Shown here in pieces: positions 3,988 to 24,199 of a DNA stretch of 64,000 bases. The notes beneath the pieces were generated by a model. It ran no database searches, was not told the DNA's origin, and was given only the letters and a program-made list of their open reading frames with translations. The position numbers and the translations under genes are program-made. The stretch covers positions 5,116 to 69,115 of the IMG/VR virus record IMGVR_UViG_3300048881_000734; one strand, written 5' to 3'. Within the stretch, counting starts at the first letter, position 1; each line of letters begins with the position of its first letter. Origin of the DNA: a virus. Lineage: Duplodnaviria; Caudoviricetes.

Positions 3988-4182
3988 TTACCCTGAATAT
4001 CTCTTTTTCAATCGGGGATCAGCTTCTCGTCCCGTCTTGAACGGAGGCCGCTTTGTTTCTCCCATACAATAATCCAGCTCTTTTTGAAGGCCCTCTGTAT
4101 TTCTACCAGCCTTCTCAAACTTTCTAATCTTCGACATCAGTCGTCTCACATGCTGATTTTGTCGTTGTGCTTTGGAACCCAT
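3988..4182 (-). CDS. Small basic hypothetical protein
   Basis: 64 aa ORF with GGAG SD and its own class A promoter. Confidence 0.65.
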   Translation of the reverse strand: MGSKAQRQNQHVRRLMSKIRKFEKAGRNTEGLQKELDYCMGETKRPPFKTGREADPRLKKRYSG

Positions 4183-4208
4183 TTGCTCTCCTAAGTAAAA
4201 CCTTTGGT

Positions 4209-4236
4209 ATATTATTCGAGGCCGTCGAGTATTACA
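4209..4236 (-). promoter_or_regulatory. Class A promoter
   Basis: TGTAAT-N16-TAATAT. Confidence 0.45.
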
Positions 4237-4847
4237 GGATTTTTTTCAATCTTCTTTCGCAAGACCTTATGTAGCCCAGGATTGACACGAAGGGCTTTGG
4301 GCAAAACCTCATGCCGAATGTAGTTCCGCATGAAGCGAGTGTCCTCGTTACTGGGATCGATAACGTGCGGAATATTATGTCTGTCACACCAATCCTCAAA
4401 TATAGCTTTCCGTGTCATGAGGAAGGGCCTCAAATACCTTCCGCGCCTTGAGGGGATTAATCTACCTTCGCCATGTAGCGAAGTGAACAGCCAGGTTTCT
4501 GCTACGTCATCTAAATGATGGCACGTAATAACAGGCCGGGTGGAATACTCGGGGGTCCAAGACACTTGCTCAAAAAACTCATACCTCTGCTTCCTCCAAA
4601 AATCTTCTTTCGAGTCACCCGGTGGGGGTGTGGTGAGGAGCCGAGATGTCAAGAGGGGTAATCCCCGCTCCTTGCAGAAATCAGTAACAAGTTGCTCAGC
4701 CTCATGTGCATGTGGGGTTCCATGGTTATAGTGAAGTACCATGACGTTCCTACTTTTCGAAAGAAAATCCAGCGCTGCCATTGAGTCCGGACCTCCTGAA
4801 ACGGCAATCGAAATCTTATGAGGAACCGATTCGTTGAGTCTAATCAT
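4212..4847 (-). CDS. tilS: tRNA(Ile)-lysidine synthase, N-terminal catalytic domain only
   Basis: PP-loop AVSGGPDSMA, HHLDDVAET, RPFL, DPSN, RNYIRH; 211 aa, lacks the usual C-terminal domains. Confidence 0.9.
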   Translation of the reverse strand: MIRLNESVPHKISIAVSGGPDSMAALDFLSKSRNVMVLHYNHGTPHAHEAEQLVTDFCKERGLPLLTSRLLTTPPPGDSKEDFWRKQRYEFFEQVSWTPEYSTRPVITCHHLDDVAETWLFTSLHGEGRLIPSRRGRYLRPFLMTRKAIFEDWCDRHNIPHVIDPSNEDTRFMRNYIRHEVLPKALRVNPGLHKVLRKKIEKNPVILDGLE

Positions 4848-4866
4848 TCTATTTCCGGTAAGATGG

Positions 4867-4944
4867 TGGTAGGGCTGCTGGGACTTGAACCCAGAACCAC
4901 CGGTTTATGAGACCGACGCTCTGACCTGATTGAGCTACAGCCCT
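4867..4944 (-). tRNA. tRNA with CAU anticodon, probably tRNA-Ile2
   Basis: Cloverleaf AGGGCUG/CAGCCCU, loop CU-CAU-AA, CCA end; directly upstream of tilS. Ile2 versus Met is inferred from context. Confidence 0.85.
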
Positions 4945-4952
4945 ATAGGAAT

Positions 4953-4980
4953 ATAGTAAGCAATCTTATGAGTGTTTACA
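4953..4980 (-). promoter_or_regulatory. Class A promoter for the tRNA(CAU)-tilS unit
   Basis: TGTAAA-N16-TACTAT. Confidence 0.55.
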
Positions 4981-5326
4981 AGCCTTCAAGGGGCTCTAAA
5001 TGACGAAAATCATATCCTTCTAGAGCAATCCGGGCGCCGTCGTAAAGAAAGACATGATGCTTCTTTAAGCCGCCAACAAGCTTTTTGAGCCAAATGGGCC
5101 CGATATAAAACAGGGGTGTAAGTCGATCTTTGTCTCGTTGTCGCTTATTTGGCCACGCATGTGGAGGTGGGTCCTGATGAATCCATGCAGGCATCAAAAA
5201 GCCAGGAATGAATCCGGCCTCGAAGCATGTGTCTAATTCGTGTTGAGTAAGATTCTTAGTGTAGGATCTCGGTATACGTCCTTTCGCACAAAGAATTTGG
5301 CCTGGTTGGGCTTCACCGACTTTCAT
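4976..5326 (-). CDS. Hypothetical protein
   Basis: 116 aa ORF in a run of overlapping genes. Confidence 0.6.
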   Translation of the reverse strand: MKVGEAQPGQILCAKGRIPRSYTKNLTQHELDTCFEAGFIPGFLMPAWIHQDPPPHAWPNKRQRDKDRLTPLFYIGPIWLKKLVGGLKKHHVFLYDGARIALEGYDFRHLEPLEGL

Positions 5327-6617: not shown

Positions 6618-7322
6618 TTGGAGGCATCCCTTATGAAAAAAATTCTCTCTTTCTTCTTCTTAGCGCTTATCGTTCTTATCTCGCCTGCTCAATCGGAAGA
6701 GCCATCAATACCAAGCGCTACTGTAATCGACGGAACAGCCGATGTCTTATTTACCAACGCCCAACGAGCAAGTCGAAGCAGCGCAGTAAAAGTGGAGGGA
6801 TTAGAGGGAGGCCACGGTTCTGGTACATATCTCGAAATGTCCGGTCACCATCTGGTCATTACAGCAAGACATGTGGTGGATCGAAATGATATATACTACA
6901 TCTCCACAGGCTCTGAAAAAGTCGTTGGACAAGTTATCTGGAAATCGCAGACGAAAGACATGGCTGTCCTTAAAATACCAAGGTTAACATCTCGGACGGC
7001 TGTTACTCTTGCTCGTACAGGCGAGCTCGTTGTAGGCGAAGAAATCACCTACACAGGTTACCCCTCTGACTATCAATTATTGACCACAAAGGCGCACGTG
7101 GCTGGCTTTGAAAATAGCCCACGCTCGACGCTACTACAGGGGTTTGTTTGGTTTGGGTACTCAGGCTCAGGAGGCTTTGACAATTCGGGAAGGCTTCGTA
7201 CGATTATTTTTGCCATCGCAGTTGAAAACTTTCGTGGTCACCCTGCATTGTTAGAGACTCTGGTTTATACTCATGAAATAAGCAGAAAAGAGGTCGCTCA
7301 AATACGCGCTGCGCTTGACTAG
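6618..7322 (+). CDS. Secreted trypsin-like (S1) serine protease
   Basis: Signal peptide; GSG, ITARHVV (His), KDMAVL (Asp), GYSGSG (Ser); likely start at MKKIL. Confidence 0.85.
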   Translation: MEASLMKKILSFFFLALIVLISPAQSEEPSIPSATVIDGTADVLFTNAQRASRSSAVKVEGLEGGHGSGTYLEMSGHHLVITARHVVDRNDIYYISTGSEKVVGQVIWKSQTKDMAVLKIPRLTSRTAVTLARTGELVVGEEITYTGYPSDYQLLTTKAHVAGFENSPRSTLLQGFVWFGYSGSGGFDNSGRLRTIIFAIAVENFRGHPALLETLVYTHEISRKEVAQIRAALD

Positions 7323-9271
7323 GGAGCCATCTGCTCCATTTGAGTGTACAGCTTCGATCGCAATTTATCCAGAGTGGGATCATCTTCGGGTAATTGCTCC
7401 CAGTAATGACGAATTGCGTTTGGGAGCTGTGGGTCATCTAAATCGAAGCCATGCCTCAGCATATCCATAGCATCCTCTTTACCATAAACAGCTAGCAGGT
7501 CCTCGGCCCCATCATGTGCATGCGCATCAATCTCAATATGCGAGCGCAGATAGTCTTGAATGTAAAGTTTCTTTCTACCCTCTTTGCGAATTTTTTCGTT
7601 TCCTTCTTCGTCAAACTCACCAGTGGGCTCATACACTTCCCAGTATTTCGGGTCATTATCATCGGGGACCTGGGACGGATCTTGAATCATTTCTTCAAAT
7701 GCCTCGGCATCATCCAGGCCCTTCTTTTCTCCCTGTTTCTTCATTTGCTTATAGTGGACAAGCTCATGACGGACGGTCTGAGCTATATGCCTCGTCAGCG
7801 CATTCGGGTCCAAAGCTGGAAGATCGACTTCTGCTGTCATGCTTTCCATGTCAATGGTGTTTCTCCCGGGGTTTTGTTTGGAAACATACCAGCGAGCGTC
7901 AGTAAGCCACCTATTAGGATATGCCGGATGGTCGGGGTGGAGTGTCATCCCGTCAATGTCTGTAGTGTCGTGAGAATTAATGACGACATCAATATCTAGC
8001 TCTAATTCATCAAAAATATCCTGAAGAGCTATGGTCAGCGCTTCCATTGCTGGGGTGGCATTCACTGAACCAGCTCTCGTAGAAATTAAGTCAATATCCT
8101 CTTGAGAATTTGGCTCATCCCAAAATCTAGATGCCAAGATAGCGGCATCTATTTTTTTGAAATATGCTTCGGGTAATGTAGTCACTTCTAATAAAATACC
8201 TCTCACATATTCTCTGAGCAATGCTTCATTCATTTCTTCTTCATCCCACTTCTCGTGGCCGAGCCAGATGTCTTTTATCTCGGAATGTTCTTGTTGATTA
8301 ATCTTACCAACATCAACATAGTTGTTCAAATAACTGTCCACTAATTGCTCTATGGCCAAACCTGAGTCAGCAGCTTCTCCTCTAAAGCCGATAAGAAATG
8401 CTGGAACTTCGCACGCTTGCGTGAAGTAATGGAAATAGCTGTCTCCCTCGGTTGGCGGAGGAACTGGACAATTAGGACGCTCAAACGGTTTGCCGCGCTG
8501 GGTAAGATGATGAATTTCATGCGGTATAACATTGGATAATTCTTGCCTCAGCTTTTTCAATAGATCAGGCGTCATCTCTAGCGCTGGTGAAAACTCTGCC
8601 CTAACAGTTATAAGAGCCTCAGCGCTTTCACCATAGCCAGCATCGGCATCAATATTCCACCCGGGGTGATCGGCAGAAAAATCAGCAAATGATATGTCTA
8701 CATCAACGTCGAAAAAAGCACCGCCTTCGTCTTCCCAATTTTCAGCCCACGTATCAGGCGCAATGGGATAGTCCCACGTGTATGTATTTAGAAGCCTCTG
8801 CTCCTCAAGCCCTGCAGTGAAGACTTCCATAATTTCCTCGATGATGGGAACGGCAACATCTGAATAATGAAAATTAGGATCCGACAGACTAAAGGCAGCT
8901 GCCTCAAACAAGCTCGTTGAACTTGCCAAAAGCCCCTGGACAATGTCTCCAACTGTGATACCCTTATCAGTAAACCAGCCCTTGTTCGCTTCGAGGGCAA
9001 ACATCGCTGGTCCAGCAGAGGGAATACCCAGCATGTTGTGTGGCTCCATATCTTCTATGTTGAGGATGGTACCTTCCGAATCAAGATATGCAATAGAAAG
9101 AGGGATGTACGTATTCTTCATCCAGAAGCTTCGCTCTTCCGAATTGGGAAAAGAGAAAAGCATCCCAGAATCAGTGGGAAGGAAGTTTCTATACATCAGA
9201 CCGAGCTGCCTTGCTGCGTGGTCATCAGCTCTTTCGACATTTATGGAACTACCATTAATGACAAGCTTCAT
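7319..9271 (-). CDS. Multidomain protein: DUF192 plus two HExxH domains joined by the LLREY-type linker
   Basis: RQLGLMYR..GMLF..FWMKNTYIPLSIAY; PHEIHH; RHELVH; internal NEALLREYVRGILLE. Confidence 0.8.
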   Translation of the reverse strand: MKLVINGSSINVERADDHAARQLGLMYRNFLPTDSGMLFSFPNSEERSFWMKNTYIPLSIAYLDSEGTILNIEDMEPHNMLGIPSAGPAMFALEANKGWFTDKGITVGDIVQGLLASSTSLFEAAAFSLSDPNFHYSDVAVPIIEEIMEVFTAGLEEQRLLNTYTWDYPIAPDTWAENWEDEGGAFFDVDVDISFADFSADHPGWNIDADAGYGESAEALITVRAEFSPALEMTPDLLKKLRQELSNVIPHEIHHLTQRGKPFERPNCPVPPPTEGDSYFHYFTQACEVPAFLIGFRGEAADSGLAIEQLVDSYLNNYVDVGKINQQEHSEIKDIWLGHEKWDEEEMNEALLREYVRGILLEVTTLPEAYFKKIDAAILASRFWDEPNSQEDIDLISTRAGSVNATPAMEALTIALQDIFDELELDIDVVINSHDTTDIDGMTLHPDHPAYPNRWLTDARWYVSKQNPGRNTIDMESMTAEVDLPALDPNALTRHIAQTVRHELVHYKQMKKQGEKKGLDDAEAFEEMIQDPSQVPDDNDPKYWEVYEPTGEFDEEGNEKIRKEGRKKLYIQDYLRSHIEIDAHAHDGAEDLLAVYGKEDAMDMLRHGFDLDDPQLPNAIRHYWEQLPEDDPTLDKLRSKLYTQMEQMAP

Positions 9272-9274
9272 CTG

Positions 9275-10126
9275 TCACCCTCTATTGATTATGATTCCCT
9301 TGTGCCTAAATAGGTCGTTATCAATAGTATATGACAGGTGCATCCTCTCTATGTCGTAAATAATCCTATCATCAGTCGGCCCGTCAAAATCATACCCAAA
9401 AATAGTCAGCTCTCTGTTGAAGAACTTTTGAACAATTTCCTTGGAAGCCGAATCATAATAATTTCTATAATCTTTCTTCCGGCGGTGGCTGACATTTGTT
9501 TTCTCAGCTGGTGGATGTTCGATATCTTCAAAGCCAGCAGCGGAGAGAAGATGCTCCATTCCTTCTTCCAGGTGCTCGGCTCTAACTACAAAATCCACAA
9601 CAGCAGAGCCGCCCTGACCAAACCACTGAGAGTACATCATCCTCTTCCAGTAAGACGTATTGAGAGCATGATTCCACGCGACCTTAGGACTACAGAACTT
9701 TTCTACGAACTCAGGAAAACTTCTGATCCCATAGATGTAATTAACATTCCCCCATCCATCCTCTGTTTCTGGAGTTCCATGGAGATACCAGCTCACAAGC
9801 CAAGAGAATGGATTTCTCGTAAGAGAAAATTTCAGCATATTATCCCATGTATTCGGTCGGAGTGGATAGCTTTGCTGGACTTGAAGTTTTATATCGATTC
9901 CATCAACTCTCCCAAAAATGGGTGTTGTAAGCTGTTCAACTTTAAGGAAGGGAAAGGGGTGAGGGTCGGCAATGTGGTATGTCTCTATCCCGCGCTGGTT
10001 GAGGTACCACTTCACAGCCGTCCCTGCAGTCTTTGGAACATGAATGAAAAACACGCGCTGGGTTTCTGGAAGAATGCCCCACCGTGACGCAACCCTCTCT
10101 TCAAATCCTTCAGGATATTCTTGCAT
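9275..10126 (-). CDS. Sulfotransferase family 2 protein
   Basis: FFIHVPKTAGTAV (5'-PSB loop), RNPFSWLVSWY (3'-PB), DFVVRAEHL. Confidence 0.85.
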   Translation of the reverse strand: MQEYPEGFEERVASRWGILPETQRVFFIHVPKTAGTAVKWYLNQRGIETYHIADPHPFPFLKVEQLTTPIFGRVDGIDIKLQVQQSYPLRPNTWDNMLKFSLTRNPFSWLVSWYLHGTPETEDGWGNVNYIYGIRSFPEFVEKFCSPKVAWNHALNTSYWKRMMYSQWFGQGGSAVVDFVVRAEHLEEGMEHLLSAAGFEDIEHPPAEKTNVSHRRKKDYRNYYDSASKEIVQKFFNRELTIFGYDFDGPTDDRIIYDIERMHLSYTIDNDLFRHKGIIINRG

Positions 10127-10306
10127 TCTTAAACTCCTGTTGGATTTTAAGAGAATTGAAGAAGATGTACTACCCTAGCGCTGCAACAACCATCGCATAT
10201 ACCAAAAAAGACGTCATCGTACAAAGGGTCCCCAAAGCAAGAGCCCCACACACGACGTCTTTAAGAGTTACCCCCCGCCAGTGCATCCATTTTTTTATTC
10301 TTTTTA

Positions 10307-10636
10307 TCATTTCTCATACTTCTCCGCGTATCCTTCTGCAAGCAGCCAATCGTTAATACACTCGTCCTCGAGCCAGATTTCTCCAAGCCAACGACCGTAT
10401 TTCCCTTTTTTGTCTTGTTGCGTTTTTAGCTTTATCCACTTGCTACCGATCTTTCCCCGCAGTGCGTCTCTTGATTTGAGTCCTTCTGGGCGCTCTGGGC
10501 CACGCACTTCGGGAGTGTTAATCCTGAGGAGACGAATCTTCTGCTTATGAAGCACAATATCAAAGCCCAAGTCGATGTCAACTGTGATTGTGTCACCATC
10601 ATAGACTTTCCTCACGTATGCCCTATATTCGTACAT
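10307..10636 (-). CDS. Thermonuclease (SNase-like)
   Basis: VYDGDTITVDIDLGF, RLLRINTPE, GKYGRWLG. Confidence 0.9.
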   Translation of the reverse strand: MYEYRAYVRKVYDGDTITVDIDLGFDIVLHKQKIRLLRINTPEVRGPERPEGLKSRDALRGKIGSKWIKLKTQQDKKGKYGRWLGEIWLEDECINDWLLAEGYAEKYEK

Positions 10637-11097
10637 TATACCCTCGCATCACGTTGTCGCATCGTACCAAGTAGCTCTTCGTCCCATGGACCTTCATACC
10701 CTGACAAATAACACTTATTCATCGCTTCCTCAGCGGTAAACTCATCAGTGACTTCAGGCTGATACATGTCATAATAAACGTCTTTTGGAATTCCGTCCGG
10801 CTTCGTTATCTTTGTCTGATCATCGAAAACCAAGTCGCCCATCTCAACCCATGCATGGACGATAGGTTTCGGCGGCCGCTTCCACTTGTCAGTCACCTTC
10901 CCATGTACGACCTTGAACTTGTCCATGTTGCCAAGATCCGGATGCTTGGTGCCTGACTGGTCTGGGTCATCAGGTGGAGTGTAGTGATCCTCAAACCACT
11001 CCTCAGCTTTCTGAATTGTGAATGGAAAGCACATGCCTTGAGCTAAAACCTTCTGCTCGCGCAGAAGCTCTCTTATGTATTTACGCAGCAGACTCAT
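10636..11097 (-). CDS. Tagged papain/transglutaminase-like Cys-His protein
   Basis: N-terminal MSLLRKYIRELLRE; GMCF, VVHG, HAWVE. Confidence 0.6.
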   Translation of the reverse strand: MSLLRKYIRELLREQKVLAQGMCFPFTIQKAEEWFEDHYTPPDDPDQSGTKHPDLGNMDKFKVVHGKVTDKWKRPPKPIVHAWVEMGDLVFDDQTKITKPDGIPKDVYYDMYQPEVTDEFTAEEAMNKCYLSGYEGPWDEELLGTMRQRDARV

Positions 11098-12782
11098 CTT
11101 CTTGCCCACTTCTTTAAGGCTTCCCAATCCCGGTGTTCGCGGGGGAACTTTCCTTGTGGGTTTTTTCGAGGGTGATTGGTGAAAGCCACCGCCCCTGGAT
11201 ATTGATAACTCATCTGCATGAGCGATCGGAAGTTCCGAAATCCCGAAATAGTCGAATCACCGAGTATTTCATTTGGGTTCATATCAGATTGCCAATTCAT
11301 ATGAATGAGTTCCATGACGTCAATGTGTCTCTTATTGAATTCATTATGCGCTGGCACTTCGTGCAGTGGTCCTTCACGACCGATAACTGGACCCTCTGCA
11401 ACTTCTTGGCCTTGCTCTAGATACGCATCGACCAGATCAACAATAGCGTTTAGATGCTCAGCTAGCTCTTCAGCGCCGGGTATCATTTCAGCTATCTGGA
11501 TACCCTGATTAGCAGTATCCCAAAACATTCGAAGGATCTTCTCATGCGTTTCATCATCGATGGCTTCATTCAATAGCCCCCTTATGTACTCACGTAACAG
11601 GCTCTCTCCAACGATCTCATCATATGCGACCATCTCTGCGTCTATCAACGCTTTTCCAAGATCCGGACCCTTTATTCCTTGAGCCATAAGCTCTTGGGGA
11701 TTTCCTGCTTGTGGCGCAGCGACATAGTCTAAAAACTTTTTAGCAGCAGCAGGAGTAGGAACACCGAAAACTGCCGCAAATTCCGTTATAACCGCAGGGT
11801 CAAGCTTGAATCGCTTAAAGTCTTTTTTGAGCTGTGGCGCAGTTTCTCTTGACATGCCCTTAAACGCCACGAGAAACTGAACCAGTTTCGATTCGTCGTT
11901 TGAGTATCTTATTTTTTTTAGAGTGGTGCCTACAGCTGGTGGGTCGTTATTTCCCAATAGCGAAGCTGTCTGGATTATGGCGTTTTGCGTCGTTGGTCCA
12001 GATATGTCGACATCAAGACCTGGAAAAATCTGCTCGAACAGGCCGAGCTCTTCCGTCAGCTCCAGGAAGTAACCAACATCCTGAGCCGATGTTATTCCCT
12101 TGGTAAATTCATCTCTTATCCGTTCTGGCGACACTTCTCTCAATTCATTGTCATCGAGAATCGCTTGCTTTGTTTCCTCATCTAACTCAGACCCAGTACG
12201 TCCCGCAAATCTAACCGCTCGTAGAATTCGAAGCGGGTCTTCTGCAAATCTGTCTGCAGCTGCGCCAACGGGTCGAACGATGCCGTCCTCAATATCCTGA
12301 ATACCCCCAACGAAATCAATAACTTCCTGAGAAGACATGTCGTAGAAAAGAGCATTCATTGTAAGGTCTCTACGTTGGGCGTCTGTTTCCATGTCTGTAA
12401 AGCTCACATCATCCGGTCGTCGGCCGGAGCCAATGTCTTCCCGGAATGTAGCAACTTCATATTCATTCCCAGCAGGTGTCTTTACAAGCACCACACCAAA
12501 TGACTCGCCAACCGGCTTAATTTGAAGCTGAGGATCTCGCTGAAGAATCTTGGTAACTTTCTCAGGTGGAGCGTTGGTAGCCACATCATAATCTTTTGGT
12601 GATTGACCCATGAGGGCATCTCGTACTGCGCCGCCGACAAGATAAAGTTCCATGCCCGCTGATTCCATTCTCTTTTGAATATCTTGAAGATCAGCAGGGA
12701 CTGATATGTTGAGTGATTGCCGAACCGGTCCGGCTTCGTCACCCTCTACAATAACTTTGATATATTGATGCAACAGGTTCAT
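11094..12782 (-). CDS. cca: CCA-adding enzyme / tRNA nucleotidyltransferase with tagged C-terminal extra domain
   Basis: LVGGAVRD, KDYDVAT, RRDLTMNAL, EDPLRILRAVRF; N-terminal MNLLHQYIKVIVE and internal ESLLREYIRGLLNE. CCA versus poly(A) activity not resolved. Confidence 0.85.
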   Translation of the reverse strand: MNLLHQYIKVIVEGDEAGPVRQSLNISVPADLQDIQKRMESAGMELYLVGGAVRDALMGQSPKDYDVATNAPPEKVTKILQRDPQLQIKPVGESFGVVLVKTPAGNEYEVATFREDIGSGRRPDDVSFTDMETDAQRRDLTMNALFYDMSSQEVIDFVGGIQDIEDGIVRPVGAAADRFAEDPLRILRAVRFAGRTGSELDEETKQAILDDNELREVSPERIRDEFTKGITSAQDVGYFLELTEELGLFEQIFPGLDVDISGPTTQNAIIQTASLLGNNDPPAVGTTLKKIRYSNDESKLVQFLVAFKGMSRETAPQLKKDFKRFKLDPAVITEFAAVFGVPTPAAAKKFLDYVAAPQAGNPQELMAQGIKGPDLGKALIDAEMVAYDEIVGESLLREYIRGLLNEAIDDETHEKILRMFWDTANQGIQIAEMIPGAEELAEHLNAIVDLVDAYLEQGQEVAEGPVIGREGPLHEVPAHNEFNKRHIDVMELIHMNWQSDMNPNEILGDSTISGFRNFRSLMQMSYQYPGAVAFTNHPRKNPQGKFPREHRDWEALKKWARR

Positions 12783-13297
12783 GCTTTCACCTTCCCCATA
12801 CTGAAAGCGACCGGCTTAAACTTGGACCAGTTTTTGCCGCCCTTCTTATCAGCAATGAAAACATTGATGGTGGCTATCTCTATTTCTTCGCCCTTCGGAA
12901 TCCTTACCTCGCTTTCATCTGAAAACATACCTGGCTCTTCACCGGCAGCCTGCGGGTCATACCCGAAATCATTCGGTACTTTGCCCCAAAACATTACATG
13001 AAGGGTCTTGCCTCGATTAGTCGCGGACCACACATCGGCAAAGCTTGAAGCAACATCCATATCTAGTGTCCAGGACTCGCCAATCTCTTCATTTTCCAGC
13101 TGAGCCATGATAAATGAGCCAGCCTCACGTTCACTTAACGCGGAGGATTGGTTTCTGGCGAGCTTTCTTATTTGTGACGCTAGACCCGCAGAGGGCATAT
13201 CAATCTTCATTCCGCGATAAATGTATCTGAAACCTGGTCCGGCGGAGTTATCTCTTTCTGTTATTATCTCTCTTATGTATTCACGTAATAGATTCAT
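12779..13297 (-). CDS. Tagged ADP-ribosyltransferase-like protein (R-S-E)
   Basis: MNLLREYIREIITE; YRG, ESWT, ESEVRI. Confidence 0.6.
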   Translation of the reverse strand: MNLLREYIREIITERDNSAGPGFRYIYRGMKIDMPSAGLASQIRKLARNQSSALSEREAGSFIMAQLENEEIGESWTLDMDVASSFADVWSATNRGKTLHVMFWGKVPNDFGYDPQAAGEEPGMFSDESEVRIPKGEEIEIATINVFIADKKGGKNWSKFKPVAFSMGKVKA

Positions 13298-13731
13298 TTT
13301 GGCTCCCTGATCATATGCCCATAATCATTAGTGCTGGGGACAAATCCAACGGAGCCATAAAACCTATAAAGATCATCGTGTTCTGCGCCAAACTCTCCGT
13401 ATGCCCCTACCTCTAGCTCAAGCGTAATATCGTACATGTCTGCTTTATTTACAACTGTTTCCATTACATTTCTGGCGTATCCTTTTTTGTAACACTCATC
13501 AGACTCCCGACCTTTTGAATCTACGGTCTCTATAAAGTCAAACCGGACTGTGTCAGAATCTGTATGATCTTTGAGGCTTATTCTTACCTCGCACCCATCG
13601 GGAAACTTTTCTACCAAAGTACCTTTTGGACCGCTGTAAAAGCTAGCTTTCATCTCATCAAGGAACATATTCGCTGGACCATTCCGCTCTGTAAGAAGTA
13701 TCTGTCTTATGTATTCACGCAGCAGATTCAT
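13294..13731 (-). CDS. Tagged GNAT acetyltransferase
   Basis: MNLLREYIRQILLTE; KKGYARNVM, LYRFYGSVGF. Confidence 0.65.
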   Translation of the reverse strand: MNLLREYIRQILLTERNGPANMFLDEMKASFYSGPKGTLVEKFPDGCEVRISLKDHTDSDTVRFDFIETVDSKGRESDECYKKGYARNVMETVVNKADMYDITLELEVGAYGEFGAEHDDLYRFYGSVGFVPSTNDYGHMIREPK

Positions 13732-14746
13732 CTTTACAACCCTCATCTGCGCTTATCAGCTCTTTTATTCCAGATGCGTTCCATACACAGCCTGACGCGA
13801 CATCCCACCCGTAATACCAGTCTGAATCCATCCGCATGTCATGCAGATAGGGGCAGATCTCAATACCATCATAGTGACTTGCAACCTTTGGCCAGTCAAT
13901 CTTGATATCTCCATAGCTGTTGGTAGTAACACCATACATCTTATTAAACTTCTTGAAGTCGTCGTTATTTGTTATGAATAGAATCTCATAATCATTCAAA
14001 ATAACATCATACGAACTATCATACCTGCTTGCGCCGTCAGTTAGACCCGTCCTACAAAACTCCTTCCAGTCGATGGAGCTACCGTCTTGGCACTCGTACC
14101 ACAGACCATCGGGCTTGTAACCAATCTCCTGGGAAAACCCACTAACCTGTGGTTCTTTACCATCTCGAGTATCTTGTCGACTGTGGTGGATACGTACCTT
14201 CTCACCGCCAGTCAAGGGGAAGTGAGATTCACGAATAAGCTCTCTTATGTATTCACGGAGTAAGGATTCTTTCATCGGGCGTAGCGAGCCAGGCCGGACC
14301 AAGAGTTCGTCCTCCACAAAATCGCCGGCCGGCCAGAGATGTTCAACTGAAACTAGAACATCAGAACGATTCACCATATATGATGCGACGGTGGCGCCCT
14401 TGCCGCCATAATAGCCACCGCTACAGCCCCCATCAGCAACTCTCTTGTTAGTCGTCACCGATGTTACGTCACCGGCTAATCCGCCGCATCGCCAAACTTG
14501 AATCTCGTCTGGAAAATCAGAGGCTATGGCAGCCTGAGTTTTCTGATACATCTCATCGGCAGCTGCTTGAACGTCTTCCATCCGTACAGTGTTTAGATCA
14601 TATTGAGTAGCGAAATAATCCAGCACATCTTCCTGATTCGGATCAGCCCAAAGATATGATATGTTTTCAGATTGACAACAGCCATCATCTGCTATTGTTT
14701 GTGCCAGCCAGCTCTGAAATGACATGAATTTCATTCCGGGCTCCAT
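13715..14746 (-). CDS. Two-domain protein: ART-like domain, linker, unknown domain
   Basis: VWRCG, TSVTT, EDELLV; internal KESLLREYIRELIRE; C-terminal KPDGLW..YDGI..WDVASG domain. Confidence 0.6.
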   Translation of the reverse strand: MEPGMKFMSFQSWLAQTIADDGCCQSENISYLWADPNQEDVLDYFATQYDLNTVRMEDVQAAADEMYQKTQAAIASDFPDEIQVWRCGGLAGDVTSVTTNKRVADGGCSGGYYGGKGATVASYMVNRSDVLVSVEHLWPAGDFVEDELLVRPGSLRPMKESLLREYIRELIRESHFPLTGGEKVRIHHSRQDTRDGKEPQVSGFSQEIGYKPDGLWYECQDGSSIDWKEFCRTGLTDGASRYDSSYDVILNDYEILFITNNDDFKKFNKMYGVTTNSYGDIKIDWPKVASHYDGIEICPYLHDMRMDSDWYYGWDVASGCVWNASGIKELISADEGCKDESAA

Positions 14747-16224
14747 AGCTCTTCGCGCGCAGTGTTGTAAATCGGTACCCCAAATTCGGAAGCCACTCTG
14801 AATATCTCGCCAATCTTACCGGGAGCCTCGACTGTATCACCAGCTTCGCCCCATTCAATAACTCTCTCTTCCCACTCGGCACTGACGGCGATGACACCAA
14901 CCGCATTCCAATTATCAACCAGCGCTTCGTTGCCACCAGACCGGCTTTGTGAAGGATCCCATGTAGACTGGTCCACTACATACGGAATGCTTCGTGCCAT
15001 CCGCTCTCCAAACTCGGACCCCGGCTTGAGCATCCCATACCTGCTAAAGTCTTTCGACATTGTGGGACGCTTGTTGATACCGGAGGATTTTTTCTGCTGT
15101 TCGTACTCTTCATCAGTCACATCGCTGGTAAGCCCCGGCATGTAATCATACATGTGACCGCTGTACAAGGCATCTTGATCGTTAGCTGCTAACGTAATTC
15201 GACCCTTGATCCACAGTCCAAACTTGTAGTCTCCGAGAGGACGAAGCCACCCCTCACCCGGGGGAGTCATTGTGGCTGACAACTCGTCTTTGCCGCTGCC
15301 GGGCAGATGGGCCAATGAATAAATGTCCTTCGCCCAGTGTACCGTGTCTAAAGTGGATAGCCACTCATGGTCAGCGTTTACTCTGAATGCATCCTTGATC
15401 GCCTTCCCACCAGCCTTCCCGATTTCGCCACCATAAAAGTGTTCTCCCTCTGGATCCATCTTATCAGAAGCCTTGGCCAGGTCTTGGACGAAGCCCATCG
15501 GGTCTTCAAGAAGTAACGCTTCAGCCAATCCCATGTCCTTATACCAATTAACGATAACGTCATTGGTGTTTTGTCCAACCCAATTTTTCTTCTGTCTGCC
15601 TTTTGCCTTACCGTCTTGACCCATGGTTTTTCTATCGGCCTTGTCCCAGCCGTATTCATTGACTTCTAAAAGCATCTCGCGAATGTACGACCTCAATGCG
15701 CTCTCAATAACAACATCAGCGTCTATGTCACACGGGGCATCTAAAACCTGATTGACGAAATGCGGAATAGCTTCCAAGCCCAGACCCTCGATCATCTTTA
15801 CGAAAGTTTCTAAATGATTCGATCTATCATCCCAAACTTGTACAACTTCTAAATCAGGCATGCCTGCTATAAACTGCTCCATCATCGATGATTTCCACGG
15901 TGCTGTTCCACCCCCGGGCTTCAAATGGACTTCGTCAAAAGACAAACCTGCACCTGCTATCAATTCTTCCACTCGTGCTGACAGCTCGGGGGAAGCGCCA
16001 CGGCCTGTCATCAGAACCGTGTACACTTCAGGATTCCCTATACTTTCCATAGCATCTGATACTGTGCTGTTAATCCACATCCCACTTGGATCGACAACAC
16101 ATGGCGGAGTAAGCGACTGAAGTGTATCATACCAACTACCAATGTGCCCTTCCCAATCATCTGGATGCATAGGGCTCATGAAGAGAGTCGCATCAAAATC
16201 GTATATGTGAAGTTCTCTAATCAT
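14731..16224 (-). CDS. HAD phosphatase (Swiss-army-knife RNA-repair-like), linker, unknown domain
   Basis: IYDFDATLF, LMTGR, LKP, VWDDR; internal IESALRSYIREMLLE. Confidence 0.75.
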   Translation of the reverse strand: MIRELHIYDFDATLFMSPMHPDDWEGHIGSWYDTLQSLTPPCVVDPSGMWINSTVSDAMESIGNPEVYTVLMTGRGASPELSARVEELIAGAGLSFDEVHLKPGGGTAPWKSSMMEQFIAGMPDLEVVQVWDDRSNHLETFVKMIEGLGLEAIPHFVNQVLDAPCDIDADVVIESALRSYIREMLLEVNEYGWDKADRKTMGQDGKAKGRQKKNWVGQNTNDVIVNWYKDMGLAEALLLEDPMGFVQDLAKASDKMDPEGEHFYGGEIGKAGGKAIKDAFRVNADHEWLSTLDTVHWAKDIYSLAHLPGSGKDELSATMTPPGEGWLRPLGDYKFGLWIKGRITLAANDQDALYSGHMYDYMPGLTSDVTDEEYEQQKKSSGINKRPTMSKDFSRYGMLKPGSEFGERMARSIPYVVDQSTWDPSQSRSGGNEALVDNWNAVGVIAVSAEWEERVIEWGEAGDTVEAPGKIGEIFRVASEFGVPIYNTAREELWSPE

Positions 16225-16907
16225 AACTTGCTTGTCTGCCTTGCGAGAAAGCCCTCTCGATCACCCGGAGCACCGTGGTCGTAATCACGAATCCAGAATG
16301 AGTATGAATTAGGGTGGCGGGATATGTTAACCGTAAACTCCCCAGACATCGCAACTGTGAAAGGATGCACTTTCTCCCATACTTCTGGAGTGTCAGTATC
16401 GCCGACAAATCCGTCAACATTCTCAACGAACTCGTCTGGTGGTATTTCTACAGTCACCGACGTCGAGGCTTGGGCACGATTCGTATATCGCACTTCTACG
16501 TTCGTGCCTTCTAGTGAATTAAAGAGCTCAACAGCCTGTTGTATGTAATCTTCATCTTGAGTTTTTATCAACTCAAAAATTGGCTCAAGGTCCGCGGGGC
16601 TAGACTGTAGTATGGGGGACTCCATCAAAAGTAGCTCACGAACATATGCTCGAAGAGACTCAAGGACAGACGGGTCTGCCATCAACGCGTGGTCCAGCTT
16701 TTCGAACCACTCTTCTTTTGTTTTGGGTCTGGTTTCGGGAGAATTGAGGTCGATGGCTTCTTTTCCATTGACGAGTATAATACCTTCTTCTCGGTTTATC
16801 ATCACAGACACGCCTGGGTTCTTTCGCTTCCACTGCATCTTGATGCTCTTCGCCATGAGTTCATCAGTCTTATCAATTCTTTCTTGTAGCGTCAGTTTGC
16901 TCATCAC
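16221..16907 (-). CDS. Two-part hypothetical protein with internal linker
   Basis: Internal VLESLRAYVRELLLME. Confidence 0.7.
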   Translation of the reverse strand: MMSKLTLQERIDKTDELMAKSIKMQWKRKNPGVSVMINREEGIILVNGKEAIDLNSPETRPKTKEEWFEKLDHALMADPSVLESLRAYVRELLLMESPILQSSPADLEPIFELIKTQDEDYIQQAVELFNSLEGTNVEVRYTNRAQASTSVTVEIPPDEFVENVDGFVGDTDTPEVWEKVHPFTVAMSGEFTVNISRHPNSYSFWIRDYDHGAPGDREGFLARQTSKL

Positions 16908-17611
16908 ACATTCCCCACAATTATCTTCAAGTGCTCTTCGCCGGCGCCGTAACTTCTAGAATACCACCCATCCTTTCCAGGACCGTAGTCTTTGGTAGGA
17001 TGTTTTCCTACCCACTCCATGTCTCGCTGAATCAGAGCTCTCGCTTTTTCTTCGTCGGTGACAACGGGTACTCCGGCTGACATTGCAATTTCTGCAGGCT
17101 TACCAGAAACTTCAGCAAACGTACCAGGCTGCTGGACGAGTTCAAGCAACCTTGAAATGCTGATTCTCTTGCCAGCTCCCCCGTCATGACCCATGCCACC
17201 AATCTTTAAATTAGATCCGCGCATTTTTCCGAAGACCACAGCATCGGGTGCAGGGTCATCATCCACATCCACCACATCAAAAAATGTGTACTCACCCGGT
17301 AGCATCTCAGCAGACTTCACTTTTAGATTTCCGCCCTCAAGACCAGCGTATGCTGCTTGGACCAGATCAAAAATCTCATCATCAAGGTCAATCTCTGGAG
17401 TATGTACTGCAATCTCTTCTTCAGGAACATCCATCCACTGACCGCTCGTTGGATTGAGGTCGGCAAACTTCTTCTCGCTTATTATCTCTCTTAGAAATCC
17501 CCTGAGTAGTGCTTCATTCACAACCTCTTGTTCTAGCGTATCAAGAATATCAGCGGCCACAGGGACATTTTGCGTATTGACTTGTGTAAAGATTTCCTGT
17601 TTTTTTCTCAT
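16904..17611 (-). CDS. Tagged hypothetical protein
   Basis: NEALLRGFLREIISE near the N-terminus; ATGA overlap with upstream gene suggests start at MRKKQ. Confidence 0.7.
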   Translation of the reverse strand: MRKKQEIFTQVNTQNVPVAADILDTLEQEVVNEALLRGFLREIISEKKFADLNPTSGQWMDVPEEEIAVHTPEIDLDDEIFDLVQAAYAGLEGGNLKVKSAEMLPGEYTFFDVVDVDDDPAPDAVVFGKMRGSNLKIGGMGHDGGAGKRISISRLLELVQQPGTFAEVSGKPAEIAMSAGVPVVTDEEKARALIQRDMEWVGKHPTKDYGPGKDGWYSRSYGAGEEHLKIIVGNV

Positions 17612-17955
17612 AATCCACTCTCTGTCTCGAGATCCCACGGACCCCAGTGGCCGTAATCTAGGATCTTCGTGCGGGCTTCTTCCCACGGATACTCAATGAC
17701 ATTATCGATTCTATCAATCTGCCCGATCGTGTAATAAAGCTGGACCGGCATTGAGATGTCTCTCCCGTTTGATTTGTCGATGACAGTCGAACCATCGAGT
17801 ACCCAAGCATGCCCAAATGGTATTCCAGCGATGGGACCTTGACCCATAACTTCACCATGCACGAGAATAAACTGGCAGTCATCTGGATTTCCAAATCCGC
17901 ATTTGTCCATTATGAACTTGCCTGCTGCTTCATAACAATCGCCGCCTGTACTCAT
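17608..17955 (-). CDS. Papain/transglutaminase-like Cys-His protein (paralog of 10636..11097)
   Basis: GDCYEAA, LVHG, HAWV. Confidence 0.6.
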   Translation of the reverse strand: MSTGGDCYEAAGKFIMDKCGFGNPDDCQFILVHGEVMGQGPIAGIPFGHAWVLDGSTVIDKSNGRDISMPVQLYYTIGQIDRIDNVIEYPWEEARTKILDYGHWGPWDLETESGL

Positions 17956-18476
17956 TAGAAATACTCCGCCCCCTTCGTCTTGATGTCCGGATATTTCTCT
18001 GCCATCTTGTCTTTCAGGTGGCCGATCTCTTTCCGCATCATCTTACCAAAATTAACGTAGTCACCCGGTTGGGGGATCGTTTGGTAGAACTCGTCGATTA
18101 ACTTACTAGCAACACCGCTGCCTTGGGAATCTCCCCGAGTTTTCATGTAATCGATGTACCAAAACGTAGCGCCGCTGGAAACCTCACCCTCGCTATGGTA
18201 GTCTAAAAATCCGATGATGCAAACATCGCTAACCCCAGGGACTATTTCATCAAGAACTGGCTTTTTTAATCGCTTTCCACCCTTTGAGTACTTTCGCCAA
18301 TTTTCCCATTCCTTAAAATAAGCATCACGTTTTTCTGGTGGGTCTGTCACTCCGGTGTCACAATATGCGATGCGCTTTACGTTGCTCGCACGGTTGTAGG
18401 TAAGCGGAGAATCAACTTCTCGAAACTCGACACTCTCTCTTAAAAATTCTTTTAGATACTCTCTGAGAAGGCTCAT
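17955..18476 (-). CDS. Tagged GNAT acetyltransferase
   Basis: MSLLREYLKEFLRE; YIDYMKT..QGSGVASKLI (motif A). Confidence 0.65.
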   Translation of the reverse strand: MSLLREYLKEFLRESVEFREVDSPLTYNRASNVKRIAYCDTGVTDPPEKRDAYFKEWENWRKYSKGGKRLKKPVLDEIVPGVSDVCIIGFLDYHSEGEVSSGATFWYIDYMKTRGDSQGSGVASKLIDEFYQTIPQPGDYVNFGKMMRKEIGHLKDKMAEKYPDIKTKGAEYF

Positions 18477-18775
18477 TAATTCCTCCGTACTGAATAAGCT
18501 TTCCCTGCCGGTGGGGGAGCGGGAGCAAGTTGGTCCATTGTCTTCTTGAGAATGTCCCCAACACTCCATGTCGGGCCCGCGTTAGTGCATTCATACTCTA
18601 CAACTTTTCCCTGGTCGTCAGGAAGCTCCCCCACAGACAAAACAATCCCCTCGCTACCCTGGTGCTTGCAATTATCGTTTATATTGATAATCGCGTCGCC
18701 TTCCATGGGCTCGAAGGTGTGGCTTTGAAAAGTTTCCCTAAGTATACTTCGAATATACTCTCTTAGGATGTTCAT
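18476..18775 (-). CDS. Tagged small SH3-like protein
   Basis: MNILREYIRSILRE; EGDAII..GIVLSV. Confidence 0.7.
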   Translation of the reverse strand: MNILREYIRSILRETFQSHTFEPMEGDAIININDNCKHQGSEGIVLSVGELPDDQGKVVEYECTNAGPTWSVGDILKKTMDQLAPAPPPAGKAYSVRRN

Positions 18776-21996: not shown

Positions 21997-23208
21997 ATGG
22001 CTTCGGGAACCTGGACCCTTAGAGGAATAAAATTCAATGATTACTCAGGAATGTCTCAATCAGATTTGCTTGAAATTCTTGAAACCCTCATCCCAGATGA
22101 GATAATAAAAGAGGAAAAACATATGTCACCAACCAACGGAAACAAAGACGACACATATATCAACGCACCGGATGCAGGCGATGATTTCGATTTTGTCATG
22201 GCTTACGATGATGATCCAGCGGAAGCTGATGAGAGATTATTGCCTGAAAATGTAGCTGCATCAGCTATCTCGTGCGGATTTATTGGCGTCGGCGGAGGTG
22301 GGGGAAAGTTAGCAAAAGCTTTCCTTGATCTTGGGTTCAACAAGACGATTCTTGTTAACACGACAGAGAAGGATCAGCCTGGTGGACTCGATGCATCTCA
22401 CTTCGTGTTGGTGCCTGGAGCTGATGGAGTTGGTAAAGATATTACACTCGGAAAGCAGGTACTTCAAGAAAACAGCGCGTTCGTTGAAGACGCGGTGAGA
22501 ACGCGGTTGGGGCAAATAGACTGGCTATTCGTTTGTGCCGGTGGTGGTGGCGGGACTGGTAGCGCGTGCCATGAGCTGCACGGCTCACTGAGCAGATACC
22601 TTTCCTCGATCGAGTCTTCAGGCAAGGTTGTTTATATTATCACCAAGCCTACAGCACAAGAGATGCTCAACCCCACGATTTCTAAAAATTACAAATCCTT
22701 GATGGAAGACATCAGCGAAACTCCCCACATTTTGATCGATAACGAAAAGCAGTTACAACTGTTGAGAGGTAAGGTAGGAATGATGAATATGTTCCCATCT
22801 GCGAATCGTAACTTTGCAAAGCTCTTGGCTCAAGTTCTTAAACTCGCCGATGAGCATACAGAGATCCAAACTTTCGACACAAAAGATTTAGAAAAATGCT
22901 TAAGCACTGACGGACGAATGGTCATTGGAAGCACTGTCGTTAGAGATGTAACAAGGAGCGATCTCGGGTCGTTGGTCTACCAGGGATGTCTCCGGTCATC
23001 GCCATGTCCCACTCCCACAAGCGGTGGAGCGACGGGTACTCTTCTCCTCATCGTCAATAGCAGCATGGCAACAGATCCTGATGTAAGTCGAAGACTCGAG
23101 TCCGCGTTCTCTTACGTGGGTGGAAGAGCAGCAACGTTATTCTCAGGAGTGTATGTAAAGGAAGGAATTCCGGGATTGATCGCAATCACATTACTCGGCG
23201 GATTGTAA
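21997..23208 (+). CDS. Tubulin/FtsZ-superfamily GTPase (PhuZ/TubZ/CetZ-like)
   Basis: FIGVGGGGGK, VNT, GADGVGKD, AGGGGGTGS signature, TFDxxD T7 loop; second SD-ATG at 22123. Confidence 0.85.
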   Translation: MASGTWTLRGIKFNDYSGMSQSDLLEILETLIPDEIIKEEKHMSPTNGNKDDTYINAPDAGDDFDFVMAYDDDPAEADERLLPENVAASAISCGFIGVGGGGGKLAKAFLDLGFNKTILVNTTEKDQPGGLDASHFVLVPGADGVGKDITLGKQVLQENSAFVEDAVRTRLGQIDWLFVCAGGGGGTGSACHELHGSLSRYLSSIESSGKVVYIITKPTAQEMLNPTISKNYKSLMEDISETPHILIDNEKQLQLLRGKVGMMNMFPSANRNFAKLLAQVLKLADEHTEIQTFDTKDLEKCLSTDGRMVIGSTVVRDVTRSDLGSLVYQGCLRSSPCPTPTSGGATGTLLLIVNSSMATDPDVSRRLESAFSYVGGRAATLFSGVYVKEGIPGLIAITLLGGL

Positions 23209-23209
23209 A

Positions 23210-24199
23210 ATGAGCTTCACTGAAAACAGGCTACTTCAAATAATCAGAGAAGAAGTCCTCCACCACCAAAAGCGAAAGATTAACGAGGCTCTCTTTGGGT
23301 TAATCGTAGAGGGAGTCTATGATCCGGGTATTTTGAAAGCCGTCTTTATGGCGGGTGGACCTGGTAGTGGAAAGTCTTACACTGCGAAAGATATTTTCGG
23401 TGGGATTAACAAAGTCGAAGACAAAGAAGCGATGCAAGCGCTTATCGACAACGACATAGAAGTAACTGAAACAATTCTAAAAGACGCAACTAATTCCATG
23501 AGCACAGAGTATGGATTACGTCTCGTAAATTCTGACCCTGCCTTTGAAAAATTCTTAAGAGATATGGGAATCGAGCCGAGTGAGCTAGCTGGTATGAGTG
23601 ATGAAGAATTTGAAGCGCTCACAGAGCCTGATGACTCACCCCGAGGCAGAGCAAAGACGATGAAAGGGCATCAACAGTCGCAATACATGAAGGGTCGGAT
23701 TGGACTTATTGTTGATGGAACTGGTGATGACTATCCCAAGATGGCAGCAAAAAAAGCTCAGGTTGAAGCGATCGGTTACGACACTGCGATGATCTTTGTT
23801 AACACATCTCTTGAAGTTGCCCTTGACCGAAACAGAAAACGTGATCGTGTCTTAAAAGATGAGCTGGTAGAAGAAATCTGGACAAAAGTCCAGGCAAACT
23901 TGGACCAATTCCAGAATTTATTTGGGAGCGACTTTATAGTTGTCAACAACACCAGCTACAGTACCGATGAAGCAAAAGTAGCGGCGATGGACGCTGCGCG
24001 GGCCTTTGTTGAATCGCCTATCGAAAATCCTATCGGAAGAAAATGGGTCGAATCTGAACTAGCCTGGAAAGAATTTGAACGCGGTCCCGAAGATGAGCAA
24101 CGGAAAGCGCCGTTTCAGAGAGAACGGACTCTTGGTGATCCTGACGATCCTGACAGGGAAGAAAAGTCAGGTACCGGCAGTCGGCGACGCAACGCTTGA
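23210..24199 (+). CDS. P-loop kinase (zeta-toxin/Pnkp kinase-like) with tag-like N-terminus
   Basis: MAGGPGSGKS, IVDGTG, FVNTSLEVALDRNRKR; N-terminal RLLQIIREEV. Confidence 0.75.
   Translation: MSFTENRLLQIIREEVLHHQKRKINEALFGLIVEGVYDPGILKAVFMAGGPGSGKSYTAKDIFGGINKVEDKEAMQALIDNDIEVTETILKDATNSMSTEYGLRLVNSDPAFEKFLRDMGIEPSELAGMSDEEFEALTEPDDSPRGRAKTMKGHQQSQYMKGRIGLIVDGTGDDYPKMAAKKAQVEAIGYDTAMIFVNTSLEVALDRNRKRDRVLKDELVEEIWTKVQANLDQFQNLFGSDFIVVNNTSYSTDEAKVAAMDAARAFVESPIENPIGRKWVESELAWKEFERGPEDEQRKAPFQRERTLGDPDDPDREEKSGTGSRRRNA

Follow-up and report, generated by a model that had tools for sequence, protein, structure and literature searches.

In phage T4, gp21 cuts by an L/I-X-E rule (PMC9026906; PMC12991175), and replacing that Glu by Asp stops processing while targeting is unaffected (PMC9026906). 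The capsid protein gp23 loses 65 residues, and Alt, a packaged and injected ADP-ribosyltransferase (ART), is trimmed by gp21 at both ends (PMC9026906). In the giant phages phiKZ, 201phi2-1 and SPN3US, cleavage of many head and ejection proteins follows the Glu of a three-residue motif, with several sites used in long propeptides; of the cuts identified in SPN3US, every one takes off an N-terminal propeptide except that in the protease itself, which loses a C-terminal propeptide (PMC10052503, PMC5694885). Polyvalent proteins have been likened to viral polyproteins (Iyer, Burroughs, Anand, de Souza & Aravind 2017, PMC5512222). Here, we analyse a stretch of 64,000 nucleotides (hereafter the window; positions 5,116 to 69,115 of IMG/VR virus record IMGVR_UViG_3300048881_000734) from an uncultured virus represented by a 69-kb contig (25% complete), in which a peptide of the form LLREYIRxLLxE (hereafter the tag) recurs on unrelated protein modules. 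A first-pass annotation of this DNA had described internal copies bracketed by Glu and had proposed protease-processed polyproteins.

Like the T4 capsid-targeting sequence (CTS), the tag is a short peptide that ends in L/I-X-E and is common to unrelated proteins, it belongs to phages with a gp23-like capsid protein and a gp21-like Peptidase_S77 protease, and its cargo set is variable. Unlike the CTS, it is 12-14 residues long, differs in sequence and sits on a far larger number of proteins, most of them 15-45 kDa enzymes; internal and C-terminal copies exist too, preceded by a second putative cutting motif, and chains of two to four modules are joined through it. Homology between the two peptides is not established. 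The two-end propeptides of Alt provide a precedent for the C-terminal tags found in two relatives (L049, L022). In the engineered 'expression-packaging-processing' fusions of T4 (Black; IPIII/CTS plus a foreign protein), a targeting element likewise carries an unrelated protein, which gp21 can release; those are laboratory constructs, whereas the fusions here are natural, recurrent and evolutionarily reversible. Polyvalent proteins are also chains of unrelated effector domains predicted to enter the host with the DNA, but they have embedded zincin-like peptidases and MuF- or portal-associated anchors (PMC5512222), whereas here repeated targeting tags with prohead-protease motifs occur in a T4-type phage. 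Neither a shared short tag nor release of two cargos from one chain has been reported for phiKZ, 201phi2-1 or SPN3US.

Taken together, the CTS, gp21 processing, the two-end propeptides of Alt and the engineered IPIII fusions supply every element of the mechanism proposed below. The remark in the first-pass annotation that polyprotein logic is rarely described in tailed phages needs qualifying, given multi-site prohead-protease processing, Alt propeptides, IPIII fusions and polyvalent proteins as precedents. We found no paper on natural chains punctuated by repeated targeting tags or on C-terminal tags, and none containing the peptide string 'LLREYIR'; judged from titles and abstracts, natural tag-punctuated polyproteins are not apparent in the literature since 2022 on 'capsid targeting sequence'.

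Results

Tag copies lie at module boundaries in the window

The tag occurs in 12 copies in the window, on unrelated modules, all in frame and on the minus strand, within one run of minus-strand genes at 7.3-18.8 kb that are closely packed or overlap. The loose seven-residue pattern LLREYIR gave 11 matches in the six-frame translation of the window, all in long open reading frames (ORFs) of one 10.6-kb stretch, and the twelfth, more degenerate copy (SLRAYVRELLLME, in ORF H) was found by direct reading. Tag codons differ synonymously between copies, indicating that selection acts on the peptide. An internal copy is present in six ORFs (A, C, F, G, H and I) that lie at 7.3 to 17.7 kb, and in five genes (B, D, E, J and K) the tag directly follows the start Met. 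These ORFs and their tags are listed below (aa, amino acids; a slash marks a proposed cut).

7319-9271 (-), ORF A, 650 aa: DUF192 and first HExxH module, internal tag, second HExxH module starting VTTLPEAY
8186-8233 (-), internal tag of ORF A with upstream flank: MNE/A LLREYVRGILLE/V, aa 347-362 of 650
10636-11097 (-), ORF B, 153 aa: N-terminal tag MSLLRKYIRELLRE/Q
11094-12782 (-), ORF C, 562 aa: degenerate N-terminal tag, CCA-adding enzyme, internal tag, 156-aa helical module
11565-11612 (-), internal tag of ORF C: VGE/S LLREYIRGLLNE/A, aa 391-406 of 562
12779-13297 (-), ORF D, 172 aa: N-terminal tag and cargo with predicted ADP-ribosyltransferase fold
13294-13731 (-), ORF E, 145 aa: N-terminal tag MNLLREYIRQILLTE/R
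13715-14746 (-), ORF F, 343 aa: 161-aa upstream module, internal tag, 170-aa module starting SHFP
14228-14275 (-), internal tag of ORF F: MKE/S LLREYIRELIRE/S, aa 158-173 of 343
14731-16224 (-), ORF G, 497 aa: HAD phosphatase, tag, 44-aa VNEYGW mini-module, truncated tag, DPMGF module
15664-15711 (-), internal tag of ORF G: VIE/S ALRSYIREMLLE/V, aa 172-187 of 497
15505-15531 (-), second, truncated junction of ORF G: GLAE/A LLLE/D, holding two L-x-E motifs
16221-16907 (-), ORF H, about 227 aa: 82-aa upstream module, tag, 132-aa module
16620-16667 (-), internal tag of ORF H: VLE/S LRAYVRELLLME/S
16904-17611 (-), ORF I, 235 aa from the ATG at 17611: 34-aa leader, tag, 189-aa module
17474-17521 (-), internal tag of ORF I: VNE/A LLRGFLREIISE/K
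17955-18476 (-), ORF J, 173 aa: N-terminal tag MSLLREYLKEFLRE/S
18476-18775 (-), ORF K, 99 aa: N-terminal tag MNILREYIRSILRE/T

All six internal copies with Glu flanks that had been described earlier were located, on the minus strand at 8186-17521, and each is indeed preceded by hydrophobic-x-E-S/A (MNEA, VGES, MKES, VIES, VLES and VNEA). Five of the six had been placed at a domain boundary; the location stands, and the count becomes six of six at a module boundary. The truncated joint of ORF G (GLAEALLLE/DPMGF) had been missed in the first reading. The idea that one tag carries two cargos fails for two ORFs: ORF I, where the likely start at the ATG at 17611 leaves only a 34-residue leader with no domain before the tag, and ORF C, which has its own degenerate N-terminal tag (MNLLHQYIKVIVE).

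The modules joined in one chain are biochemically disparate. ORF A combines DUF192 (Pfam, aa 10-112) with two HExxH motifs, HEIHH and HELVH, one per half; the halves may be zincin-like peptidases and paralogous to each other. ORF C combines a CCA-adding enzyme, whose head and RNA-binding domains Pfam places at aa 46-257 (PolyA_pol) and which also matches the PHROG tRNA nucleotidyltransferase, with a helical module, and ORF G links a HAD phosphatase (Pfam HAD_SAK_1, aa 46-153) to the mini-module and the DPMGF module. Searches with ten isolated modules found nothing above cut-offs in Pfam at E up to 5, and matched only families of unknown function among the PHROGs.

The tag end and upstream flank resemble prohead-protease sites

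Relatives were collected with a DNA pattern derived from the tag, giving 22 stretches on about 14 IMG/VR contigs, and one complete 293-kb relative with terminal repeats (G002, IMGVR_UViG_3300007513_000001) was analysed over its whole genome. Two close relatives (G007 and G008) share the fusions of the window at 65-89% identity. A small hidden Markov model (HMM) of the tag, run over all stop-to-stop frames of the relatives' loci, yielded 69 distinct clear tags. In G002, clear matches (HMM score of at least about 9.5) all lie in frame in ORFs of more than 100 aa, mostly in clusters at the genome ends and near 283-292 kb, with one near 64 kb. Most of the 69 tags are N-terminal and follow M-[N/K/S/R]. 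Residue -1 of N-terminal tags is Asn, Ser or Lys, and their start Met occupies the position of the upstream Glu of internal tags.

Glu is found at position 11-13 in 67 of the 69 distinct tags, and Asp alone in none. Position P3 of this tag end is Leu in 55, Ile in 11 and Val in 1, with P2 free. Judged by its sequence, the tag end matches the L/I-X-E rule of gp21. The tag also resembles propeptides in the T4 record, MKTYQEFIAE/A (IPII and IPIII) and MAKINELLRE/S (gp24); MKTYQEFIAE and MNLLREYIRE agree at 4 of 10 residues, a peptide too short for statistics. In front of the tag, [V/M/I/T/Y]-x-E-[S/A] adjoins it in about 11 of 16 internal junction families of the window and relatives, the background for [VILMTYF]-x-E-[SA] being 0.42% per position. 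The combination of Glu at -2 with a hydrophobic residue at -4 is specific to internal and C-terminal tags. We thus see part of the earlier claim of two-sided cleavage upheld, in that tags lie between independent modules and both flanks fit a gp21-type specificity; the cleavage itself we infer.

Modules are fused or encoded separately in different relatives

The first-pass annotation had suggested looking in relatives for the halves as separate tagged genes. Each of the six downstream halves proved to be a separate tagged gene in some relative. Upstream halves were found as separate genes for ORF A and ORF F, carrying a C-terminal tag in the case of F and untagged in the case of A. Halves of all six ORFs are encoded separately in relatives, and outside homologues cover single halves, as expected of independent mature modules. 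In every architecture, the module boundary is exact to the residue after the tag Glu, including the truncated forms LLLE/D, LLSE/G, LLAE/K and VIVRLLTE/A.

The fusion of ORF A is kept in L010. In L006, L014, L017 and L020, its downstream half is a separate N-terminally tagged gene of the MNLLREYIKEVLSE/VTALPQEY type, and the upstream DUF192/HExxH half is a separate untagged gene that ends in KWNREEE; the stop after KWNREEE coincides with the point at which ORF A runs on as KWDEEE-MNEA-tag. In the case of ORF C, CCA enzymes from 508 cultured-phage records match at most aa 16-391, mostly 24-391, and the internal tag begins at aa 395, after the VGES flank at 391-394. The same VGES-tag is followed in L001 by a different module, distant members of whose family are N-terminally tagged genes. 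A longer chain is encoded in G002 (286552-289344, +), where about 920 aa comprise DUF192, YSES-tag, the CCA enzyme, IGES-VIVRLLTE, a further module, a tag and a PAP2-like phosphatase, so that the CCA enzyme sits within this polyprotein.

ORF F provides a view of how such a fusion may have formed. Its actinophage homologues span aa 161/180-338 only, that is, the half after the tag, and this SHFP half is a separate N-terminally tagged gene in L001 and L010. The upstream half is a separate gene in G009 (L049 3989-4510) that ends ...LRPMKE/SLLREYIRGLLEV and a stop codon, with an N-terminally tagged gene beginning two bases after it. Three database clusters (P0022-P0024) of 168 residues end in the same C-terminal tag behind MKE/S. 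In a DNA alignment, ORF F follows the G009 gene to mid-tag and then the N-tagged SHFP gene of L001; with the crossover inside the tag DNA, the fusion looks like the product of recombination that joined a C-terminal tag to an N-terminal one. Another C-terminally tagged protein was observed in L022 (reverse-strand frame 4146-5027). In both L049 3989-4510 and L022, the C-terminal tag is followed by 1-3 residues and the stop, and the L022 protein opens with a truncated tag, MRSLLLE/K, so that it has tag-like peptides at both ends.

ORF G shows the same behaviour at its third module. Like it, the orthologues in L001, L010 and L022 run from the HAD domain through the tag and the VNEYGW mini-module to a GL(A/M)EA..LLxE joint. 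What follows as third module differs: the window has DPMGF, L001 and L022 have (G/S)VEF.E.DSP, and L010 has KDNSAG. Each of these third modules starts at the same residue as in its N-tagged single-gene form, which for DPMGF is found in L001, L013, L022 and L049. The cargo of ORF J is the third module of the HAD fusion in L001 and L022.

For ORF H, an 87%-identical fused form (P0020) comes from another assembly. The leader of ORF I, followed by VVNE[S/A] and the tag, also precedes an ART cargo in G002, and it recurs in P0008; the downstream module of ORF I is N-terminally tagged in G002, L006 and L022. Homologues of ORF B are N-terminally tagged in L006, L007 and L010, and the cargo of ORF K is followed in L022 by a second tag and another module.

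A second tag family

Relatives carry another tag family, MKITKRQLRRIIRE, which has more members and likewise an I-x-E end. It occurs on about 20 small proteins of G002 (47.9-57 kb and 284-286.5 kb), in L049 (849-2616) and in L001 (11613-12122), with a few copies internal; none was found in the window. The downstream module of ORF H also exists alone, in P0021, behind this second kind of tag (MKITKRQIRNILRE), so that the two tags look interchangeable.

Relatives encode a T4-type head module and a gp21-family protease

Peptidase_S77 (PF03420) was detected above the Pfam cut-off in 7 of 10 related contigs, including G007 (C1, 28978-29430) and G008 (C1, 93829-94290). The G002 protein shares 31% identity with T4 gp21, and the catalytic residues His85 and Ser140 align. 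The capsid protein of G002 is gp23-like, and L63, E65 and A66 are invariant in its alignment with T4 gp23, so that its VLRE/A matches FLTE65/A66 of T4. A T4-type head together with a gp21-family protease was found in the relatives only.

Two further features of this G002 region were noted. Two tandem gp23-like capsid protein paralogues (176269-180150, +) are identical over their first 90 residues. Small proteins beside the protease (172544-173323, +) have tag-like N-terminal helices, for example SMLKGIVKECLVEILAE/G; these are candidates for core proteins onto which the tags would dock. The scaffold protein of G002 is encoded at 174556-176244.

The cargo of ORF D is a predicted ADP-ribosyltransferase

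An AlphaFold2 model of ORF D, built from a 15-sequence alignment, gave a domain with a predicted local distance difference test score (pLDDT) mostly above 90 from residue 21. The tag helix scored about 56, falling below 50 at residues 12-16, the site of the proposed cut. Foldseek returned no match to this model at E <= 0.001, its best, weak matches being ADP-ribosylating toxins. In a second look with VIA, the top 36 rows were almost all ADP-ribosylating toxins, the best having a middling Z of 7.5 (root mean square deviation 3.0, 104 residues, aligned from residue 22), and all alignments begin at model residue 21-25. R28, W76 (in S-W-T), E128 and E130 are invariant among the 15 sequences of the family. 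Because of the VIA matches and the conserved motifs, ORF D is predicted to be an R-S-E ADP-ribosyltransferase. The low confidence of the tag helix, together with structural matches that start beyond it, suggests that the tag is not part of the fold.

With this predicted R-S-E fold and its motifs, ORF D is likely a functional analogue of T4 Alt, although sequence similarity to Alt is not detectable and the closest structures are Rhs ART toxins and cholera-toxin-like ARTs (Z 7.5). A tblastn search with the ORF D cargo found no match in cultured phages. Cargos of this type stand behind internal tags in P0001, P0018, L010 and G002. Across the family they occur with an N-terminal tag, behind a leader and tag, behind an upstream module of 160 residues and a tag (P0001), in third place in the HAD chain (L010), or with another N-terminal motif.

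Other genes in and around the tagged run

Untagged genes also lie inside the run (9275-10636 and 17608-17955, both -), encoding a sulfotransferase, a homologue of staphylococcal nuclease and a 115-aa protein paralogous to the ORF B cargo. Two genes at 21997-24199 (+) form a pair that is conserved in L001: the first is tubulin/FtsZ-like (weak Pfam hit) and the second Zeta-toxin/AAA kinase-like; the N-terminus of the kinase-like protein, MSFTENRLLQIIREE, resembles the second tag family. The T4 late-promoter motif TATAAATA had 2 matches against 1.9 expected, with none in the tagged gene cluster.

Discussion

We propose that LLREYIRxLLxE is a position-independent capsid-targeting tag of the T4 type, that tags recombine with one another, and that the prohead protease resolves the resulting chains at both flanks of the tag. 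Under this proposal, the tag would form an amphipathic helix that docks proteins onto the scaffolding core of the prohead and would function at the N-terminus, internally or at the C-terminus. Since tags are alike in DNA, recombination between the tags of neighbouring genes is possible, and it would fuse cargo genes in frame or split them, giving cargo-tag-cargo chains. Inside the prohead, the gp21-family protease would cut after the tag-ending Glu and also after the Glu of V/M/I-x-E-S/A before an internal or C-terminal tag. Cut on both sides, the tag would become a small peptide able to leave the head, and each module would be released. The freed enzymes, namely the ADP-ribosyltransferase, the CCA-adding enzyme, HAD and PAP2-type phosphatases and the HExxH proteins, would then be ejected with the DNA. 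In this way, a single gene would probably supply the virion with two or three proteins, each released separately.

Docking, both cleavages, packaging and ejection are inferred from the motifs, their conservation, tag-exact shuffling, the split and fused states, and the protease and capsid site of the relatives. We give the proposal as a whole a probability of about 0.6. Its parts differ: we are more confident that the targeting tag is removed at its end and that the fusions arise by recombination at tags, and we consider the odds of cutting at the upstream site to be roughly balanced.

Several observations weigh against the proposal. No head genes were found on the window's own contig (25% complete), and the protease is therefore taken from the relatives. 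Neither a nucleotide search of the region nor the tblastn search with the ORF D cargo matched a cultured phage, and no cultured relative was found. The AlphaFold2 model of the fusion protein of ORF G (7-sequence alignment) has a mean pLDDT of 39 and a predicted template modelling score of 0.26, too poor to judge the linker. Four or five junction families have no upstream motif (QNE/L, EEEW, NEE/Y, AEGP), and where it is present, P3 of the upstream site is mostly Val or Met, unlike the Leu/Ile of T4. This motif is conserved also in leader-only forms, where there is no cargo to free, and it is therefore possibly a structural feature of internal tags. The junction families are perhaps not independent either, because tag and flank could spread as a cassette; the very small binomial probability calculated for the upstream motif therefore overstates, if anything, how significant it is.

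The upstream motif is where another explanation comes closest. A Ser, Ala or Asn before a helix is a possible helix cap, and the tags could be capsid-targeting sequences that are cut only at LLxE/, with the upstream module keeping the tag as a tail and V-x-E-S/A serving as a helix cap or linker. The exact fit of the tag end to the T4 rule, set beside the mostly Val or Met P3 upstream, agrees with this explanation, as do the leader-only forms, where upstream cleavage frees nothing, and residue -1 of N-terminal tags, as Asn and Ser are good helix caps. However, Glu at -2 and a hydrophobic residue at -4 recur behind unrelated modules (CCA, HAD, DUF192/HExxH and orphans), and MKE/S is retained before C-terminal tags. 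Moreover, gp21 removes the C-terminal propeptide of Alt (PMC9026906) and also cleaves non-canonical x-x-E sites, more weakly (PMC12991175). We therefore regard cutting at the tag end only as unlikely. Still less probable is that the fusions stay intact, with the peptide as an uncleaved docking or oligomerisation helix in ordinary multidomain 'polyvalent' effectors. Polyvalent injected proteins are widespread and some are unprocessed, such as the N4 virion RNA polymerase (PMC5512222), and cleavage at the tags is a prediction from motifs. Yet intact fusions would leave unexplained the near-absolute L/I-x-E at the tag end, with Asp never substituting even though Asp spares targeting in T4, as well as the residue-exact boundaries after Glu, the low-confidence break in the ORF D model and the gp21-family protease.

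A cutter other than the prohead protease has also been considered. Iyer et al. (PMC5512222) proposed processing by embedded peptidases, and a zincin-like metallopeptidase in the HExxH modules of ORF A and relatives could play this role here: ORF A has two HExxH motifs, and its downstream module gives a Tox-MPTase3 hit (E 0.018, 15.7 bits). This hit lies below the Pfam cut-off of 25, most tagged chains have no such domain, and the junction motif corresponds to the specificity of the serine protease gp21 and to the maturation site of the capsid protein, so that we consider this explanation highly improbable. It is somewhat less remote, but still very unlikely, that the peptide is unrelated to the capsid, acting as another address or as a degradation or regulatory signal, or that the internal copies reflect internal translation starts or assembly artefacts. 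A tubulin-like gene on the contig (weak Pfam hit) would suit a role outside the capsid, but the tag is similar to propeptides of T4 and is found together with a T4-type head module. The codon at -4 is ATG in 2 of the 6 internal copies, as internal starts would have it; internal starts were rejected, being excluded for at least 3 of the 6, in which this codon is a non-start (GTT, GTT and GTC), and no Shine-Dalgarno sequence precedes the ATG in F. An assembly or frameshift artefact was likewise rejected, the same fusions being present in the independent assemblies L010, L001, L022, G002 and P0020.

Looking beyond the window, marine T4-like jumbo phages may possess a plug-in cargo system in which two position-independent tag families (LLREYIRxLLxE and MKITKRQLRRIIRE), both with a prohead-protease site at their end, direct at least about 30 enzymes per genome into the capsid. 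Tags would serve as recombination handles, and protease-resolved polyproteins would yield injected effectors that include tRNA- and RNA-repair-type enzymes and an ADP-ribosyltransferase. We hold this wider picture to be an even call.

If the proposal is true, the capsid-targeting principle of T4 would be far broader than the three small internal proteins and Alt of that phage. It would constitute a modular delivery system in which the tag stands at either end of a cargo or between cargos, and the same tag would let phages reshuffle their injected arsenal through recombination. The tag together with L/I-x-E would provide a simple sequence rule for predicting the co-injected proteins of uncultured T4-like phages, and the arrangement would offer natural designs for loading several proteins into a capsid from one construct. 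The injected activities would include unexpected ones, a CCA-adding enzyme, HAD and PAP2 phosphatases and an ADP-ribosyltransferase, and with these enzymes the phage may, from the very start of infection, repair the effects of host attacks on its tRNA and transcription machinery or forestall them.

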